Shown in pieces: positions 10,998 to 61,020 of a stretch of DNA of 64,000 nt (within the stretch, counting starts at the first letter, position 1; the number at the start of each line of letters is the position of its first letter). The notes under the pieces were generated by a model. The model was not told where the DNA came from, ran no database searches, and saw only the letters and a list, made by a program, of their open reading frames with translations. Source of the DNA: Octopus vulgaris (lineage: Eukaryota). The stretch covers positions 83,700,001-83,764,000 of the forward strand of contig OX597821.1 in assembly GCA_951406725.2 (NCBI GenBank), given 5' to 3'. The position numbers and the translations under genes were made by a program.

Positions 10998-11025
10998 CAT
11001 TATTATTATTATTATTATTATTATT

Positions 11026-11430
11026 TCAGTTTCTTTGTGAAAGGTCTTTTCTCCCACATCCTGTGACCTCTTAAGAAACTCTTTGTGTCACGTGCCTCCT
11101 CTTGTTCAGCTTATTTCGTAAGCAGAACAAGTGCTTGTGTTTAATCGGCAAAATATGACCATCCTCAAGTATAACAACATCTGTTTCAACACACAACTCC
11201 TCATCAAGAATCTTGCAATTATTATTATTATTATTTTAGTTTTTTTGTGAAAGCTCTTTTCTCCCACATCCTGTGATCTTAAGAAACTCTTTGTGTCACG
11301 TGCCTCCTCTTGTTCAGCTTATTCCGTAAGCAGAACAAGTGCTTGTGTTTAATCGGCAAAATATGACCATCCTCAAGTATAACAACATCTGTTTCAACAC
11401 ACAACTTCTCATCAAGAATCTTGCAAAATG
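11026..11430 (-). mobile_element. Tandemly duplicated probable R4-like 3' tail separated by (TTA)n
   Basis: ~190-bp direct repeat (11026-11218, 11237-11426), each abutting (TTA)n; weak RLE C-terminus-like translation. Confidence 0.5.
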
Positions 11431-11972
11431 AATACATAAACTTATATGTTTTATTCTACCAAATTCCACTTGCATTAGAAGAGGATTACCAAAGGTCCAA
11501 AGTACCAAGCAGTAAATCTAACCTAGAACTAAACTATTGCAAGACAAACTTCTTAACCACACAGCCATGCCTACCTTTCATCATAGGTCAACCTGGTCAG
11601 GACCAACCTGGGGCTAAACAATAAGAAGTATGTATGGAAATGTCTTTACATAAAAATAAAAATAAAAACTGCAGGAAAAATAAAAAGGAAAAATAAAAGG
11701 AAAAATAAAAACGAAAAATACTGATGATGATGATGATGATCATCATCATCATCATTATCATCATTTTCATTATCATCATTATGATATAGGTGGTGGTGGT
11801 GGTGGAGATGGTGTTTTTGCATCTGTATTATTGTTTGTATATCTTCAAAACAATCTAATTTAACCGAAGTACATCAGTATTCCTAGCCTTAAACTTCTCT
11901 ATCTATGATCAGCATTCGTGTTTTGGCGGGGGGTGAAATCTGTTCATTATCATTCTATCTGATACTAAACAG

Positions 11973-15280: not shown

Positions 15281-15884
15281 TATAGAATGGTTGTATACTG
15301 TCAATCTAACAAGAACGTGACAGTAGGGGGTACACCACTGTTGTATAGCCCTAGGAGGCATCGAACGCCTCCTGACAGCTTCGACACATTTTTTCCCTGT
15401 GTCCTTATATACATATATGAAGGGGAGACAAACACCCCCAATTGCCAGAACTACATCTAGGGACACCATGTTTCAGAATCCTGAAACACGGTGTTTTTTC
15501 CCTGTGTCCTTATATACATATATGAAGGGGAGACAAACACCCCCAACCGCCAGAACTGCATCTAGGGACACCATGTTTCAGAATCCTGAAACACGGTGTT
15601 TTTTCCCTGTGTCCTTATATACATATATGAAGGGGAGACAAACACCCCCAACCGCCAGAACTGCATCTAGGGACACCGTGTTTCAGGATCCTGAAACACG
15701 GTGTCCCTAGATGCAGTTCTGGCGGTTGGGGGTGTTTGTCTCCCCTTCGTATATGTATATAAGGACACAGGGAAAAAATGTGTCGAAGCTGTCAGGAGGC
15801 GTTCGATGCCTCCTAGGGCTATACAACAGTGGTGTACCCCCTACTGTCACGTTCTTGTTAGATTGACAGTATACAACCATTCTA

Positions 15885-35652: not shown

Positions 35653-35904
35653 ATAGAAAATGTCCAAAAAAGGGAAGACGGAGAAAGAAAATCGTCAACG
35701 ATACACACGCGGTCGTAGAGTGGTGTGAAAAGCCAATTTCAACAGACGTAGTGAAAGACATGTTGCGCCGCTGCACGATAGACAAATCTTCAAAAAATAG
35801 GATATTAATCACTACGAAGTCTATCGTAGCATACAAAACTTGTCTGCTGATACCTTAGCAGATATCTACAGCAGCTAGCAGCAGACTGGAAGCGTTCCCA
35901 TTTA

Positions 35905-36325
35905 TACCTATTCTTTACTACCCACAAGGGGCTAAACACAGAGAAGACAAACAAGGACAGTCAAACGGATTAAGTCGATTATATCGACCCCAGTGCATAA
36001 CTGGTACTTATTTAATCGACCCCGAAAGGATGAATGGCAAAGCCGACCTCGGCGGAATTTGAACTCAGAACGTAACGGCAGACGAAATACCTATTTCTTT
36101 ACTACCCACAAAGGGCTAAACACAGAGAGGACAAACAAGGACAGACATAGGTATTAAATCGATTATATCGATCCCAGTGCGTAACTGGTACTTATTTAAT
36201 CGACCCCGAAAGGATGAAAGGCAAAGTCGACCTCGGTGGAATTTGAACTCAGAACGTAATGGCAGACGAAATACCGCTTAGCACTTCGCCCGGCGTGCTA
36301 ACGTTTCTGCCAGCTCGCCGCCTTA
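35905..36325 (-). mobile_element. SINE family B with 184-bp tandem duplication of body and tail
   Basis: Head ggcggcgagctggcagaaacgttagcacgccgg; repeated unit at 35913 and 36097. Confidence 0.85.
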
Positions 36326-40599: not shown

Positions 40600-41182
40600 T
40601 ACTATTATAAATTTTGGGAAGGGGTATAGTCGATTACATCCACCCCAGAACTTGACTGCTACTTATTTTATCGACCTCGAAAGGGTGAAAGGCAAAGTCA
40701 ACCTCGGCGGATATTGAACTCAAATGGTGAAGACAGACGAAATACCTTTTTTTTTTTTACTACCCACAAGGGACTAATCACAGAGAGGACAAACAAGGAC
40801 AGACAAACGGATTAAGCCGATTATATCGACCCCAGTGCGTAACTGGTACTTATTTAATCGACCCCGAAAGGATGAAGAGCAAAGTCGACCACGGCGAAAT
40901 TTGAACTCAGAACGTAGCGGCAGACGAAATACCTATTTCTTTACTACCCACAAGGGGCTAAACACAGAAAGGACAAACAAGGACAGACAAACGGATTAAG
41001 TCGATTATATCGACCCCAGTGTGTAACTGGTACTTATTTAATCGACCCCGAAAGGATGAAGAGCAAAGTCGACCACGGCGGAATTTGAACTCAGAACGTA
41101 GCGGCAGACGAAATACCGCTAAGCATTTCTTTCACCCGGCCTGCTAATGATTCCGCTAGCTCACCGTCTTACTCGCCGCCTT
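40600..41182 (-). mobile_element. SINE family B multimer (~185-bp units)
   Basis: Three consecutive atcgacccc..ggatgaa..aaagtcgacc..gaactca units. Confidence 0.85.
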
Positions 41183-42185: not shown

Positions 42186-43479
42186 GAGGGGCGTTCAATA
42201 AGTAATGCCCCTGATCCACTTGAAGTTTTTTGATCTAGCTGAAATTTTGCATGTGCAATTACTTATATCTCTATAGATTAAGTAGCAAATTACAGCTCTA
42301 AACTAATTGTGGTTTCTGATTTACAGGTGTTTGAACTGAGTCAAGTGGGAAATGGAGTCTGTTGAATGTCGAGCAGTGATCCGGTTTTTGTATTTGAAAG
42401 GACGCACACCACGGGAGACGTTTGATGAAATGAAAGTAACTTATGGTGATGATGCCCCATCATATGACCTTGTAAAACGCTGGCATCGTGAATTCAAACA
42501 TGGTTGGAACTCTGTGGAATCAGCTCCCAGATGTGGTCGCCCCCTTCTGCCATTGATGAGGCATCTGTCCGTCAAGTTGAGGCTGCCATTTTGGAAGATC
42601 GACGCATAACTATTCCCGAAATAAATAGCCCATGAGGTCAAGATTAGTACCGGGTCTGTGGTAACTATCATTCATGACCATTTGCATATGCAAAAGGTGT
42701 CTGCCAGATGGATTCCCAGGTTGCTCACATCTTTCCAGAAGCAAGAACGCGTCGATTGCTTGAGGATGAATTTGGAGATGTGCCAAGAAGATGAGTCAAA
42801 ATTTTTCAAAAGACTGATTACACAGGATGAAACCTGGGTCCATCACTATGATCCTGAGACCAAAGCCCATTCAATGCAGTGGAAGCACCGTGACTACCCT
42901 CCTCCAAAGAAGGCAAGGGTGCAGCCCTCCGCTGGCAAGGTCATGCTCACAGTCTTCTGGGACCAGGACGGAGTAGTGATGACAGATTTCCTGGCAAATG
43001 GTGCCACAATTACAGGAGCCTATTATGCTTCACTTTTGAGGAAATTAAGAGAAGCTATCAAAATCAAGAGGCGGGGCAAGATCAGCAAAGGCATCCTCCT
43101 CCTGCAGGACAACGCTCTGGTCCACAACTCGCGTGTCGCCAGATCAGGAGCACAGGCGTGCGGCTATGAACTCCTCCCCCATCCCCCTACTCTTCTGACC
43201 TTGCACCCTCTGATTTTCACCTCTTCCCAGCCATGAAGTTGTTTTTGAAAGGAAAGCGTTTGCCAGATGATGCAGCCTTGATTTCTGAACTCACGTCGTG
43301 GCTGGAGGACCAAGCTGGTGTCTTCTACAGAAACGGTCTTCAGAGCTGCATCAAACGATGGGAGAAATGCGTAACTCTGAGTGGTTCCTATGTAGAAAAA
43401 GACTAATAACTGTGCCAAGTTTCGTTGCTCTACTGCTATGGGAAGTGGGTCAGGGGCATTACTTATTGAACGCCCCTCG
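42185..43479 (+). mobile_element. Full-length mariner transposon (irritans-like) in (TA)n
   Basis: ~37-bp TIR CGAGGGGCGTTCAATAAGTAATGCCCCTGAYCCACTT; TA TSD; ~1295 bp. Confidence 0.95.
42352..43406 (+). pseudogene. Frameshifted mariner DD34D transposase
   Basis: MESVECRAVIRFLYLKG.. WIPRLL, TQDETW, QDNA, PHPPY(S)SDLAPSDF spread over several frames. Confidence 0.92.
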
Positions 43480-43743: not shown

Positions 43744-44189
43744 ATGCAAACTGGGACAAGAACGTAAAACACTTAGAAGACGATACAAAAAACACGGACG
43801 GGACATTCGAAGCCTTCAATCTTCAGTCAAGAACCGGATCATCGTAGCAATTTCGTCTATATATATATATATACACATATATACACACATATATATATAT
43901 ACATATATACACATATATACACATATATACACATATATACACATAACCAATACTGAAACACATTCCAAGTATGCAAACTGGGACAAGAACGTAAAACACT
44001 TAGAAGACGATACAAAAAACACGGACGGGACATTCGAAGCCTTCAATCTTCAGTCAAGAACCGGATCATCGTAGCAATTTCGTCTATATATATATATACA
44101 CATATATACACATATATACATATATACACATATATACACATATATACACATATATACACATAACCAATACTGAAACACATTCCAAGTAT
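43744..44189. repeat. Tandem duplication (first unit 227 bp) spanning the Penelope 5' junction
   Basis: atgcaaactgggac..tttcgtc-(TA/CA)n-taaccaatactgaaacacattccaagtat present twice (43744, 43971). Confidence 0.9.
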
Positions 44190-45641
44190 TGTAAGAGATG
44201 ACCTGGACCTATTAAATCATCTCCCCAAACATACCGATAAAGACACTTTATTCGTTTCCTTTGATGTAATTAATCTTTACACCACAATCCCACATGAATA
44301 TGGACTGGAAGCCATTAAATTCTGGCTGGATAAATATCCCAATGAGATCCCGGAAAGAATTAAAAAAGAATTCATCATTGAGGGCCTCAAATTTATTCTG
44401 CAAAACAACTTCATGTATTTCAATAACAACACTTACAGACAGGTTTCAGGAACTGCAATGGGTACGAAAGTTGCACCTACCTATGCAAACCTGGTGATGG
44501 CCTACCTGGAATCACATATCTATGAAAAATCCAAATATAAGTACGGCCAGTCTTTCCACAAATACCTGTTGGAGAACTGGAAACGCTACTTAGATGATTG
44601 CCTCATCCTATGGTCCCACACACTCGACCAACTTATAGACCTCAAAAACCTTATCAACAGTGTAAATAACAACATTCAATTCACAATGGAATATAGTCAG
44701 GACCAACTCCCTTTTCTTGACATTCTAATCATTAAAAAAGGCGTCAACATTGAAACTGACATCCATTACAAACCCACTGACTCTAAACAATACCTTCTAT
44801 TCACCTCCAATCACCCAAAACACACAAAGACAAATATCCCCTTCAACCTAGCGAGAAGAATCTGCACAATTGTCTCAAATGACACAACACGAAATAGAAG
44901 ACTCCGGGAACTAAGGGCAATTCTTCTCGAAAGACATTACCCGGCATCACTAGTAGACAACGGAATAGAACGGGCCAAATCAATCAACACTTAAGACCTA
45001 CGAAAACCTAAACACATCCACATTACAGTAAATAGCCTCCCCTATCTCTCAACACACAACCCAAGGAATGCAGAAGCTTACACTATTATATACAACAACA
45101 TTCCACAACTAAATCAAGACCCACGCCTGAAAAAATTACTGGCAGCTCATAAAATAATAAAAAGTAAGAGACAACCTAAATCCCTAAAAAACCTCCTCAC
45201 CAACGCAAAATTACACAACACAAACCCACCGCCCACCATCAAAAAATGTGGTCGCCCCAACTGCAGGACTTGCATCCACCTCATTGAGGAATCGACGTAC
45301 AAGTTCCGCTCGGGACACACATTCATCATAAAAAATAATTTCACGTGCGCATCAAAAAATTTACTCTACGTAATAAGGTGTGAAGGATGCCACGAAGACT
45401 ACATAGGGCAAACGAGCCTTACCCTCAGAGAAAGAATGACAGTTCACCGACAACAACTGAGGGACCCCTCCACAAGACAGATACCACTAAGTGGACACTT
45501 AGACCTTTGTGCACACAATAAGTCCCCCAAATTCTTAGTCTTCCCACTATACCAATGCTCGGACAACACCACAGACCAACACGAATAAATAGGGAAAGTA
45601 ATCTTATTCAAAAATACAGACCACAACTAAACATACTCTAA
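44164..45641 (+). pseudogene. Penelope RT-GIY-YIG polyprotein (stop at 44992, frameshift near 45580)
   Basis: SFDVINLYTTIP, GTAMGTKVAPTYANL, RYLDD, LPFLD, HYKPT; CGRPNCRTC linker; TCASKNLLYVIRCEGCHEDYIGQT..RERMTVH. Confidence 0.93.
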
Positions 45642-50159: not shown

Positions 50160-51434
50160 TCAGGTCATCCCAAAAGTTGTGTCCAATTTTACCTTTTTTA
50201 AAATTGAATGAAATGTAATAGTATTTTAGAATGTCTAATGGAATTAAAAATTATTCTTATGCATTTGTGTACACCTAAACTAATTAAATATTATTTTACA
50301 GAATAAGAGAATTAAAATTTCTTTGATTAAAACCCTCTCTAACATGGAAGTATCCAAAGAGCATTTAAGGCACATAATGCTTTATGAGTACAAAAACGTA
50401 AACTCTGCAGCTGAAGCGACTCGAAACATACACTCAGTTTATGGGAAAGAATGCTTGAATGAAAGAATTTGCAGAAGATGGTTTGCAAAATTCAGAAGTG
50501 GAGATTTCAGCCTTGAAGATGAAGATCGAACAGGACGTCCAGTTGAGTTTGATGATAAGCTCCTTGAGGCATTACTTGAAGAAAATCCTGCATTATCAGT
50601 TAAAGAACTGGCAATAAAGCTTAGTTCAAACCATACAACTGTTCATCGTCATCTTCAACAACTTAGAAAGGTTCCTAAACTTAGAAAATGGGTGCCTCAT
50701 GAATTGTCCAAAAGCAACCGCAAATCCCGAGTTGACATCTGCTCTTCTCTCCATTCTTGCGAACTCATTTCACCCTTTTTGGATAGAATTGTGACTGGTG
50801 AAGAAAAATAGATCTTCTGTCAAGATGTTAAACGTCGTAAACAGTGACTTGGTAAAATGGAAAAAGCTCAACCATAACCGAGAAGGAACCTTCATGGAAA
50901 AAAGGCTCTTCTCTCTACCTGGTGGGATTGCAAAGGGGTAATTCACTTTGAATTGTTACCACCTAATGCAGCAATCAATGCTCAAGTCTACTGCCAGCAA
51001 TTAGAGCGTTTGAACCAAGCTTTGAAGAAAAAAAGACCCGCTTTAGGGAATCGGAAAGGAGTGATGTTTCATCAGGACAATGCGCGACCTCACACTGCAA
51101 AGATCACATCACAGAAGATCGAAGAGCTTGGCTGGGGAAAAATTCCTCATCCACCTTATATTCCCGACCTTGCTCTTTCAGACTATCATTTACAGAATCA
51201 TTTGGGGACATAACTTTCGCAAGCCAGGAGGAGGTCGAAACTGACATTTCAGTGTTCTTCGCTTTGAAACCAAAAGAGTTATACATCGATGGAATTAAAA
51301 TGCTTGTAAATAAATGGAAGGAAGTCATAGATAATCAGGGAAAGTACATTGATGATTAAATTTCAATTAAATATAACATCTGATCACTTGTTTTCTTTAT
51401 TCAAAATTCGGACAGAACTTATGGGATGACCTGT
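50160..51434 (+). mobile_element. Full-length mariner (cecropia/Hsmar1-like), decayed
   Basis: TIR CAGGTCATCCCAWAAGTTSTGTCC / GGACAGAACTTATGGGATGACCTG; TA TSD. Confidence 0.92.
50344..51359 (+). pseudogene. Mariner transposase with multiple stops
   Basis: MEVSKEHLRHIMLYEY.. WVPHEL, TGEEK, HQDNARPH, PHPPYIPDLALSDYHL. Confidence 0.92.
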
Positions 51435-58761: not shown

Positions 58762-58972
58762 CTCTCTTTTACTTGTTTCAGTCATTTGACTGCGGCCATG
58801 CTGGAGTACCGCCTTTTAGTAGAGCAACTCGACCCCGGGACTTATTCTTTGTAAGCGCAGTACTTATTCTATCGGTCTCTTTTGCCGAACCGTTAAGTGA
58901 CGGGGACGTAAACACACCAGCATCGGTTGTCAAGCAATGCTAGGGAGACAAACACAGACACACAAACACACA

Positions 58973-59056
<84 letters not shown>

Positions 59057-59231
59057 TATATACATATATACGACAGGCTTCTTTCAGTTTCCGTCTACTA
59101 AATCCACTCACAAGGCATTGGTCGGCCCGGGGCTATAGCAGAAGACACTTGCCCAAGATGCCACGCGGTGGGACTGAACCCGGAACCATGTGGTTGGTTA
59201 GCAAGCTACTTACCAGACAGCCACTCCTGCG

Positions 59232-59234
<3 letters not shown>
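58762..59234 (-). mobile_element. SINE family A (young-looking, full length)
   Basis: Complete head and tail, CpGs retained, TA flanks. Confidence 0.9.
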
Positions 59235-59274
<40 letters not shown>

Positions 59275-59277
<3 letters not shown>

Positions 59278-59990
59278 AAATAAACAAGTTAGAGTGTCGA
59301 ATATTACGCTATTTATCTTGAGATGGCTTCTCATATGGATGCATGGTGCATAAAAGCACGCATATTTATATCGTAGGCAGACGAGAATCTTCTGCCACGG
59401 GTGCCGGAACTGGCACATTCCGTTATTTCGACGTGCTCCGTCTCTTCAGTGGAAGACGTCTTGTAGCCACACACCAGCCAAATCTCACTACCAGCGATAT
59501 ATGGAAATTCAGTGTCTTTTAAGGCACTGTTATTGCAAATAGCCAGCAGACTTATTTAAAACAAATCATTAGCGACAGAAGCAGTATTAATAACAAAAAG
59601 AAATCTTTATACTGAACTTAATATTGTATCATTTACTTTGAGAGGACCTCTCATATGGACGCATGGCGCATAAAATCTGAAATTCCATGTATCACTGGCA
59701 TGAAATTTGACTGGTATACAGTTACCGGATCTCTGCTACTGAAGAGAAGACACACGTCGAAATTGCGTGATCTGGCAGTTCCAGTACCCGCAGCAGACGA
59801 TTCTCGTCTTCCAATGTGAAATAAATATGTGTGATTTTATGCTCCATGTATCAAAATGAGAAGTCTTCGCGGGGTAAATAACGCAGAATTCTGTGCTCTA
59901 ACAATGCATCCACGTTACGTTGGATTTAAATATTGTCTTTTAGTATTAATATTGCTTCTACCACTAGTAATTAGTTTTTAAAAATAAACA
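59275..59990. mobile_element. Tandem plus inverted ~320-bp pLTR-like element with two divergent hammerheads
   Basis: Direct repeat 59310 versus 59630; inverted copy 59677-59990; HHR on the minus strand at 59410-59455 and on the plus strand at 59733-59778. Confidence 0.75.
59733..59778 (+). ncRNA. Type I hammerhead ribozyme (canonical core, AUC cleavage triplet)
   Basis: CTGCTA-CTGAAGA-GAAG acaca CGTC-GAA-ATTGCGTGAT-C-TGGCAG; the sister copy has a perfect stem II GACG/CGTC. Confidence 0.8.
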
Positions 59991-60619
59991 AGTACAAAGC
60001 TAGGGCGAAGTGTTAAAGGGCTAGATTAGATACCTTGTGGCATCTGTCTCAGCTCCTGAAAGCAATACCTGTGACGACAGTGACGCCAAGCTGCTTCGGC
60101 CCAAGCCAGCAGCATTTCCTTTGAATAAACAAATAACTTTGGTATAGAGAAAGAAGACAGGTGTGAGATTTTTGGCACAACCATTTTGGTGTCACTGATT
60201 CGACGCTGACTTGTTTGACATCAGACTTCTTTGATGTTTTCTTCTTTCTTCTTCTCGCCACTCTCTCTTTCTGTTTATGTGTACGAGTATCTAAATACGT
60301 CTGTATGTGTATAATATCTCTATCTAGCTCTCCCCCTTCTCTCTTCTCTCTTCCATTCTCCCTATCTGCATGTGTATACTTTTGTGCATGTGCGCATGCG
60401 TATGTCTGTGTGCGTTTGTATGAGTTTTTGTGCTTCATGTGAGTTTTTGTTTTGCGTGCGTGCGCGTATTTGCCTCCAGCGCCAAAATGTATTGTCACCT
60501 GAACAGGTTGAATATCCAGTCAACCGTGCCGAATCGTTTGCACCCAGACAGCCACTAACCGTCGTGTTGTCCTAATAGAAGATGTGCATGCATGGGCACC
60601 TGTCAGTCTTCCTCAAACA

Positions 60620-60764
60620 AGTAGCTTGCTTACGAACCACATGGTTCTGGGTTCAGTCCCACTGCGTGGCACCTTGGGCAAGTGTCTTCTACTATAGCCT
60701 CGGGCTGACCAAAGCCTTGTGAGTGAAAGAAGCCCGTCGTATATATGTATATGTATTTATATGT

Positions 60765-60813
<49 letters not shown>

Positions 60814-61020
60814 TGTGTCTGTGTTTGTCCCTCCCAACATCGCTTGACAACCGATGCTGGTGTGTTTACGTCCCCGTAACTTCGCGGTTCTGCAAAGAGA
60901 CCCATAGAATAAGTACTAGGCTTACAAAGAATAAGTCCTGGGGTCGATTTGCTCGACTAAAGGCGGTGATCCAGCTTGGCCACAGTCAGATGACTGAAAC
61001 AAGTAAAAGAGTAAAAGAGT
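60620..61020 (+). mobile_element. SINE family A (5'-clipped)
   Basis: Homology to the other family A copies. Confidence 0.85.

Follow-up and report, generated by a model that had tools for sequence, protein, structure and literature searches.

The window analysed here, which is the whole stretch of 64,000 nucleotides, is animal DNA with many microsatellites and dispersed repeats, a landscape reminiscent of octopus genomes. It contains an element made of two arms in inverted orientation (Table 1). Read in the sense of its hammerhead motif, the left arm lies on the minus strand (59676 down to 59290) and the right arm on the plus strand (59677 to 59981). Their 5'-truncated ends abut head to head, with the 3' ends pointing outward. 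The repeat unit has a period of approximately 346 nt. On that scale the left arm, once 413 nt long, amounts to 1.19 units, and the 305 nt of the right arm to 0.88 unit.

Table 1. Features of the element and its immediate flanks, in window coordinates
Feature	Position	Strand	Remarks
(TA)20 microsatellite	59234..59273		4 nt outside the left 12-mer; putative AT-rich target region
Left 12-bp flanking direct repeat, candidate target-site duplication	59278..59289	+	Final 2 nt match the unit too
Left arm, outer near-complete unit, 330 of ~346 nt	59290..59619	-	3' end leftward
Left hammerhead, type I, decayed	59402..59465	-	Intact core, stem II 4/4, stems I and III broken, AUG triplet
26-nt deletion site	59619..59620		Gap against the right arm and against other contigs bearing the locus
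Left arm, inner 5'-truncated partial unit, pLTR-like partial tandem	59620..59676	-	Without hammerhead
Head-to-head inversion junction	59676..59677		Self-comparison; bridged by X3, X4 and X11 contigs
Right arm, 0.88 unit	59677..59981	+	3' end rightward; ends at the phase where many family copies appear to end
Right hammerhead, type I, less decayed	59723..59786	+	6-bp stem I and outer helix, core, AUC
Right 12-bp flanking direct repeat	59982..59993	+	Single-contig depth past the repeat

Self-comparison of the window aligned 59311-59355 directly with 59631-59675, with 38 of 45 positions identical, and over a wider span (59300-59356 and 59620-59676) 44 of 57 are identical. The tandem overlap within the left arm is 77-84% identical. 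The arms align in inverted orientation in two blocks, 59288-59512 with 59902-59677 (74% over 227 nt, E 4e-36) and 59552-59609 with 59984-59927 (78% over 59 nt), and the substitutions between them comprise 35 transitions and 21 transversions. An initial annotation of this DNA had described the direct repeat, as 59310-59355 and 59630-59676, with a period of about 320 bp, and had taken 59677-59990 for an inverted monomer. The repeat and the inversion are real. The period is not, the unit being about 346 nt and shortened here by a 26-nt deletion, and the right arm falls short of a full monomer, since it ends at 59981 and what follows belongs to the flanking repeat.

The flanking 12-mer is present at 59278 and 59982 only, in the entire 64 kb. 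Similarity to the unit runs out within 2 nt of the left 12-mer and where the right one begins. Of the 12 letters, 10 are A or T. Of 20,000 pairs of positions drawn at random with this spacing, 24 have a 12-mer in common no more than 10 nt from each point, in a test run post hoc, after the repeat had been noticed. Judged from its placement on both junctions, this direct repeat is a candidate target-site duplication; no empty site was seen. If all were identical at insertion, a perfect 12-mer next to units only 72-84% alike would have a probability of 3-12%; one possible reason is that the template itself held units that already differed. The nearby (TA)20 run is a weak pointer to the target, 2.4% of the window being within 20 nt of such a run. 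The left arm does not continue past the microsatellite and the flanking repeats, where alignment scores are at the level of shuffled sequence. Further out, the locus is flanked in opposite orientation by short dispersed repeats (58765-59232 and 60600-61000) with 14-21 matches each in the window; the pair shares 107 nt at 92% and represents ordinary SINE-like copies beside microsatellites. At 60185-60230 the summed contig depth rises to ~25,000, where another high-copy repeat, present once in the window, ends.

The inversion was considered as a possible assembly artefact and this was rejected. The centre junction is spanned by single contigs in three public runs (X3 record 22, X4 record 25 and X11 record 6), and the layout must therefore be genuine. 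The X4 contig covers the entire stretch in one piece with 20 differences in ~960 letters, and places the inverted layout under a second organism label as well. Run X11 has 43 related contigs and its RNA origin is only guessed. Because contigs can switch between similar arms, opposite-strand joints were left out of the tally of inverted copies.

Alignment of the right arm with the inner partial unit shows that ~26 nt are absent from the latter. Three contigs that are the locus itself or its likely orthologue bear on this: X11 record 6 has 26 extra letters behind 59619, and 26 gap letters are present in each of X4 record 25 and X15 record 13. The deletion is lacking in the X11 contig, which has the same organism label as the best-matching runs, and it may thus be polymorphic. 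Twelve of 13 joints in other copies were listed, and the informative ones are those running from near the deletion back to the left end; four of these five put the period at 346-347 and the fifth at 320. The spacing of 320 at this locus is due to the deletion behind 59619, and a 320-nt monomer is rejected.

The unit belongs to a dispersed, multicopy repeat family. At 80% likeness there are 947, 1,034 and 1,037 related contigs in the three DNA runs, approximately two thirds of them less than 90% alike. No second family copy is present within the 64-kb window. The peak summed depth is ~11,000-11,800, against ~47 for the single spanning contig in X4, and past 59988 the summed depth drops to one spanning contig. 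This suggests hundreds of family copies, with the proviso that depth is no copy number. Approximately 55 in 100 related contigs extend into unlike sequence.

Permuted or tandem copies elsewhere had been named as a check on the initial annotation. Other copies do run through the phases at which the left and right arms end, with 5 of the 32 pieces listed crossing the family end into the unit head, and therefore the unit map closes on itself. Dimers or long arrays were not seen in the contigs, which are short. A scan for the unit motif gave 0 and 0 matches in viral contigs and 0 and 2 in metagenome contigs. Both metagenome matches share only ~22 nt with the element and the upstream core is absent from their examined flanks, and so they are read as chance. 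Contig L002 has a 165-nt terminal direct repeat (1-165 and 1374-1538, 99%), is probably a circular contig or an assembly overlap, and is unrelated to the element.

The right arm appears to stop where the family does. Among the 24 of 1,176 loose-end rows listed, 32 contigs in X4 and 34 in X15 have loose ends before 59564, with unlike, AT-rich sequence, and the rows at phase 59564-59570 have 30-34 contigs each. Agreement among these loose ends is 0.44 and 0.47, compared with 0.6-0.72 where a row has many contigs with a common continuation. Three of the 24 rows carry the evidence for the family end. Summed depth falls 2- to 4-fold there in all three DNA runs, across the same bin border, from 10,976 to 5,683 in X3, 11,845 to 4,721 in X4 and 3,664 to 998 in X15; depth dips elsewhere too, where this copy has decayed locally. 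Taken together, this is a good hint that many copies stop near phase 59555-59570, as does the right arm.

Both arms contain the CTGAAGA...CGTC-GAAA core of a hammerhead (59739 on the plus strand and 59449 on the minus strand), as had been annotated. The motifs were scored against a model of 21 pairs (outer helix 7, stem I 6, stem II 4, stem III 4), the last of which is possible only in a dimer. The right hammerhead forms 19 of 21 pairs and keeps AUC, with an A-G mismatch in stem II, a short stem III and a predicted cut after 59772. Its stem I has the 6 bp claimed for it, one of them G-U. The left hammerhead forms 14 of 21 pairs and has AUG instead of AUC. A type I descriptor matched once in the window, at 59739 on the plus strand, and in none of 40 dinucleotide shuffles.

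When letters common in other copies are used (ten alternatives, among 40 of 189 rows listed), the left hammerhead rises from 14 to 19 of 21 pairs, AUC is restored, and both stem III regions become the same 10-nt palindrome. The letter at 59424 is the majority in one of the three DNA runs and its counterpart at 59764 is the majority in all three. By its letters the family form is a canonical type I hammerhead, with a helix I of 6 bp, a helix II of 4 bp, a palindromic stem III and AUC. Canonical metazoan type I motifs have these helix lengths and a palindromic helix III, and are thought to cleave as dimers (PMC4209133). The family hammerhead would likewise cleave as a dimer in multimeric RNA. 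The label of canonical hammerheads thus applies to the family and not to these two copies, which are both decayed and probably inactive. Intact ribozymes at this locus are rejected on the AUG and broken stems of the left motif and the stem II mismatch of the right.

Rfam searches do not recover the motifs. The whole window gave 0 matches at the gathering score. With the limit relaxed to E 10, the region had 18 matches, all below the gathering score and none of them a hammerhead. The lowest-energy fold of either arm is not a hammerhead, and single units, in these decayed copies, show no better folding than shuffled sequence, with z-scores of -1.5 (left unit as a circle) and -0.5 (right arm). 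In a squid genome, 235 Rfam hammerheads have been counted (PMC6962438).

The element is non-coding. The longest stop-to-stop frame overlapping it is 83 aa, Pfam searches of 8 of its 9 frames gave nothing better than E 0.05, and no RT or GIY-YIG ORF lies between the pLTR-like repeats. A tRNA-derived unit was rejected, as no tRNA was found in the element. A bacterial promoter scan was at chance level and is not relevant here.

Other mobile DNA is present in the window. A 5'-truncated Penelope-like element (PLE) remnant at 43744-45630 has an RT followed, past one stop codon, by a Cys-rich linker and a weak GIY-YIG match; within it, 44164-45588 matches RVT_1 of Pfam (E 1.6e-8) and a GIY-YIG-like remnant (E 8e-4, below the cut-off). 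It resembles Neptune as described in PMC8557442, and a PDB search with it gave 0 matches. Upstream of the remnant, a unit of 227 bp that includes a microsatellite occurs twice in tandem, with a degenerate CTGAAGA motif on the minus strand; this unit was not found after the ORF. The ends of the remnant are unrelated to those of the element and the two have no similarity, hence it shows that the enzyme class is present in the genome and does not identify a partner. Broken mariner-type transposase fragments are present at 42625-43236 and 50284-51359 (Pfam Transposase_1 and HTH_48). Short tandem duplications at 35904-36275, 40628-41117, 11008-11426 and 15389-15704 have periods of 184, 184, 208 and 105; the two 184-bp arrays have a common unit, and the hammerhead descriptor has no match in any of the four.

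The comparison with the non-LTR retrozymes of animals, as defined by Cervera and de la Pena (2020, PMC7229834), is close. Those have non-coding units of 150-450 nt (350-390 in the mussel, ~346 here), a GC content under 45-50% (39% here), a single canonical type I hammerhead in each unit, units organised in tandem, a duplication longer than 4 bp (12 bp here) and many dispersed, decayed copies. The description of the locus as retrozyme-like therefore holds, in that its unit is of retrozyme size and comes from a non-coding family with hammerheads and dispersed copies. It differs in having just 1.19 tandem units, with one hammerhead in the tandem arm, and in its head-to-head inverted arm; the word 'inverted' is absent from the main text of PMC7229834, and a search of the review PMC11722881 gave nothing on inverted retrozyme copies. 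The sequence of the locus has no Rfam match. Li, Clavereau and Pollet (2026, bioRxiv 10.64898/2026.07.22.740005) have argued that vertebrate retrozymes are non-autonomous PLEs, and place other animals and the mobilisation mechanism outside their tests. Their 'active retrozyme' has two consecutive units, each with a complete hammerhead. Here, the inner partial unit 59620-59676 has no hammerhead and the second hammerhead is on the other strand, which concerns the locus and not the family. A full-text literature search of partial coverage turned up no account of cephalopod retrozymes or of the 346-nt family, which may already have an entry in a catalogue such as Repbase or Dfam or in a paper supplement.

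PLE insertions are described as partial tandems, often with an adjacent inverted, 5'-truncated copy at the 5' end and a bias toward microsatellites, and non-autonomous forms exist (Craig et al. 2021, PMC8557442). Such inserts, mostly head to head, lie within duplications of 8-10 bp round the whole insert (Arkhipova et al. 2013, PMC3846280). On AT-rich DNA, a purified PLE protein both cleaves and extends the two strands; it starts inside the RNA, and its main substrate is uncleaved RNA (Frangieh et al. 2024, PMC11167929). The layout of the locus (partial tandem, inverted 5'-truncated copy, short duplication) is the one published for PLEs. Shared with endonuclease-bearing PLE insertions are also the head-to-head junction and an AT-rich or (TA)n target; a preferred internal start downstream of the hammerhead may be shared too. 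The locus is unlike them in its lack of an ORF, in its canonical rather than minimal hammerhead, and in having no palindrome at the inversion junction. The outer ends are offset by ~80 nt rather than by a PLE tail of 30-40 nt, and this counts against the comparison. Twin or dual priming of L1 (Meyer et al. 2010, PMC2837659) similarly gives two inverted fragments inside a target duplication, with 3' ends outward and short homology at the second priming site. Unlike L1, the locus has no poly(A) tail or L1 sequence, and its two fragments overlap in sequence, the template being a short unit in tandem or circular form.

It is likely, at a probability of approximately 0.72, that a dispersed 346-nt hammerhead family of the animal non-LTR retrozyme type is represented at 59290-59981 by an old, decayed copy, introduced in one insertion by the RT and endonuclease of a PLE acting in trans. 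The repeats, the junctions, the multicopy family, the 346-nt period, the motif anatomy and the decay are observed; the enzyme, the order of priming, the template and cleavage are inferred. The proposed steps are as follows. The endonuclease would make nicks in the two strands, 10-12 nt from each other, in the AT-rich DNA next to (TA)n. One of them would prime a cDNA at the usual internal start, ~209 nt 3' of the hammerhead cut site, giving the right arm of 305 nt. The other, with 2 nt of homology, would prime at a point of the unit ~80 nt farther upstream, giving the left arm of 413 nt. The two cDNAs would then join head to head, and gap filling would yield the 12-bp duplication. The inversion, this duplication and the shared family end are marks described for target-primed insertion of the PLE type. 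No autonomous partner with the same ends was found in the window, where the PLE remnant has unrelated ends.

The template was longer than one unit. Since both cDNAs cross the cut site, it was an uncleaved multimer or a religated circle. A circle would serve, as would two RNA molecules or a linear tandem transcript covering 2.4 units or more; a single linear template would need 841 nt (2.4 units), of which 123 nt are skipped. The initial annotation had proposed that reverse transcription ran more than once round a circular or multimeric template of ~320 nt, and in this it was right about the passage beyond one unit and wrong about the size. A circular monomer RNA, produced by hammerhead cleavage and ligation and recorded as such by the insertion, is possible but doubtful as the origin of the locus. 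The length of the left arm, the crossing of the cut site by both arms and the closed unit map in other copies are all in keeping with it; circles have been shown for the retrozymes of coral, mussel and axolotl (PMC7229834) and have been proposed for PLE tandems (PMC4209133). It is also compatible with PLE insertion, as the template for that insertion. However, rolling round a circle gives tandem copies and does not explain the inversion, nor by itself does it give a fixed start, and a linear tandem transcript explains the same lengths. The circle reading of the initial annotation took no account of the inversion, nor of the 12-bp duplication or the family end that the right arm shares. Cleavage is not needed for PLE insertion in vitro (PMC11167929), and the imperfect tandem overlap beside a perfect 12-mer is a weak hint that the units differed at insertion. 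The combined version, in which the locus is a fossil of two-ended PLE priming on a circular retrozyme RNA, with one cDNA from a fixed site and the other from ~80 nt upstream over 1.2 rounds, is unlikely.

It is improbable that the unit is a pLTR, the terminal repeat of an autonomous PLE, which would make the locus a very short remnant of such an element, left by truncation, and not an independent retrozyme. The layout would be identical, hammerhead pairs on opposite strands 100-700 bp apart have been described as truncated PLEs (PMC4209133), and the extension of many related contigs into unlike sequence would agree. Yet the head and tail of the unit are joined at the 346-nt period with no ORF between them, and the hammerhead is not of the minimal PLE type, which has a helix II of 7-8 bp. 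Separate insertion of two copies, or rearrangement of a short array by a later local inversion or duplication, with the 12-mer arising by chance, would account for arms that are only 74% alike in a window dense in dispersed repeats, and the 12-mer is indeed AT-rich and was spotted post hoc. The arms nevertheless meet 5' end to 5' end with no spacer, and the 12-mer is at both outer borders, at the chance rate given above, which makes such origins distinctly improbable. Retention of a long inverted repeat for a host function, as a double-stranded RNA hairpin, is extremely improbable. The 731-nt transcript folds as a long rod (z -16.7), as expected of any inverted insertion, and the locus is found under more than one organism label; against this, the arms have drifted to their present divergence and the 26-nt deletion has been tolerated.

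The significance of a trans-mobilised origin for this locus is modest, as retrozymes and the tandem and inverted layout of PLEs are both already in print. What the family adds is evidence at the level of junctions (the inverted arm, the duplication and the shared end) for a unit with a canonical hammerhead. One decayed copy is insufficient, and the multicopy family is usable material on the origin of PLE tandems and on the question of circles versus linear multimers. If the circular-template reading is true, there would be canonical-hammerhead retrozymes in an invertebrate that move with the full marks of PLE insertion, and the tandem units of young copies could separate circular from linear templates.
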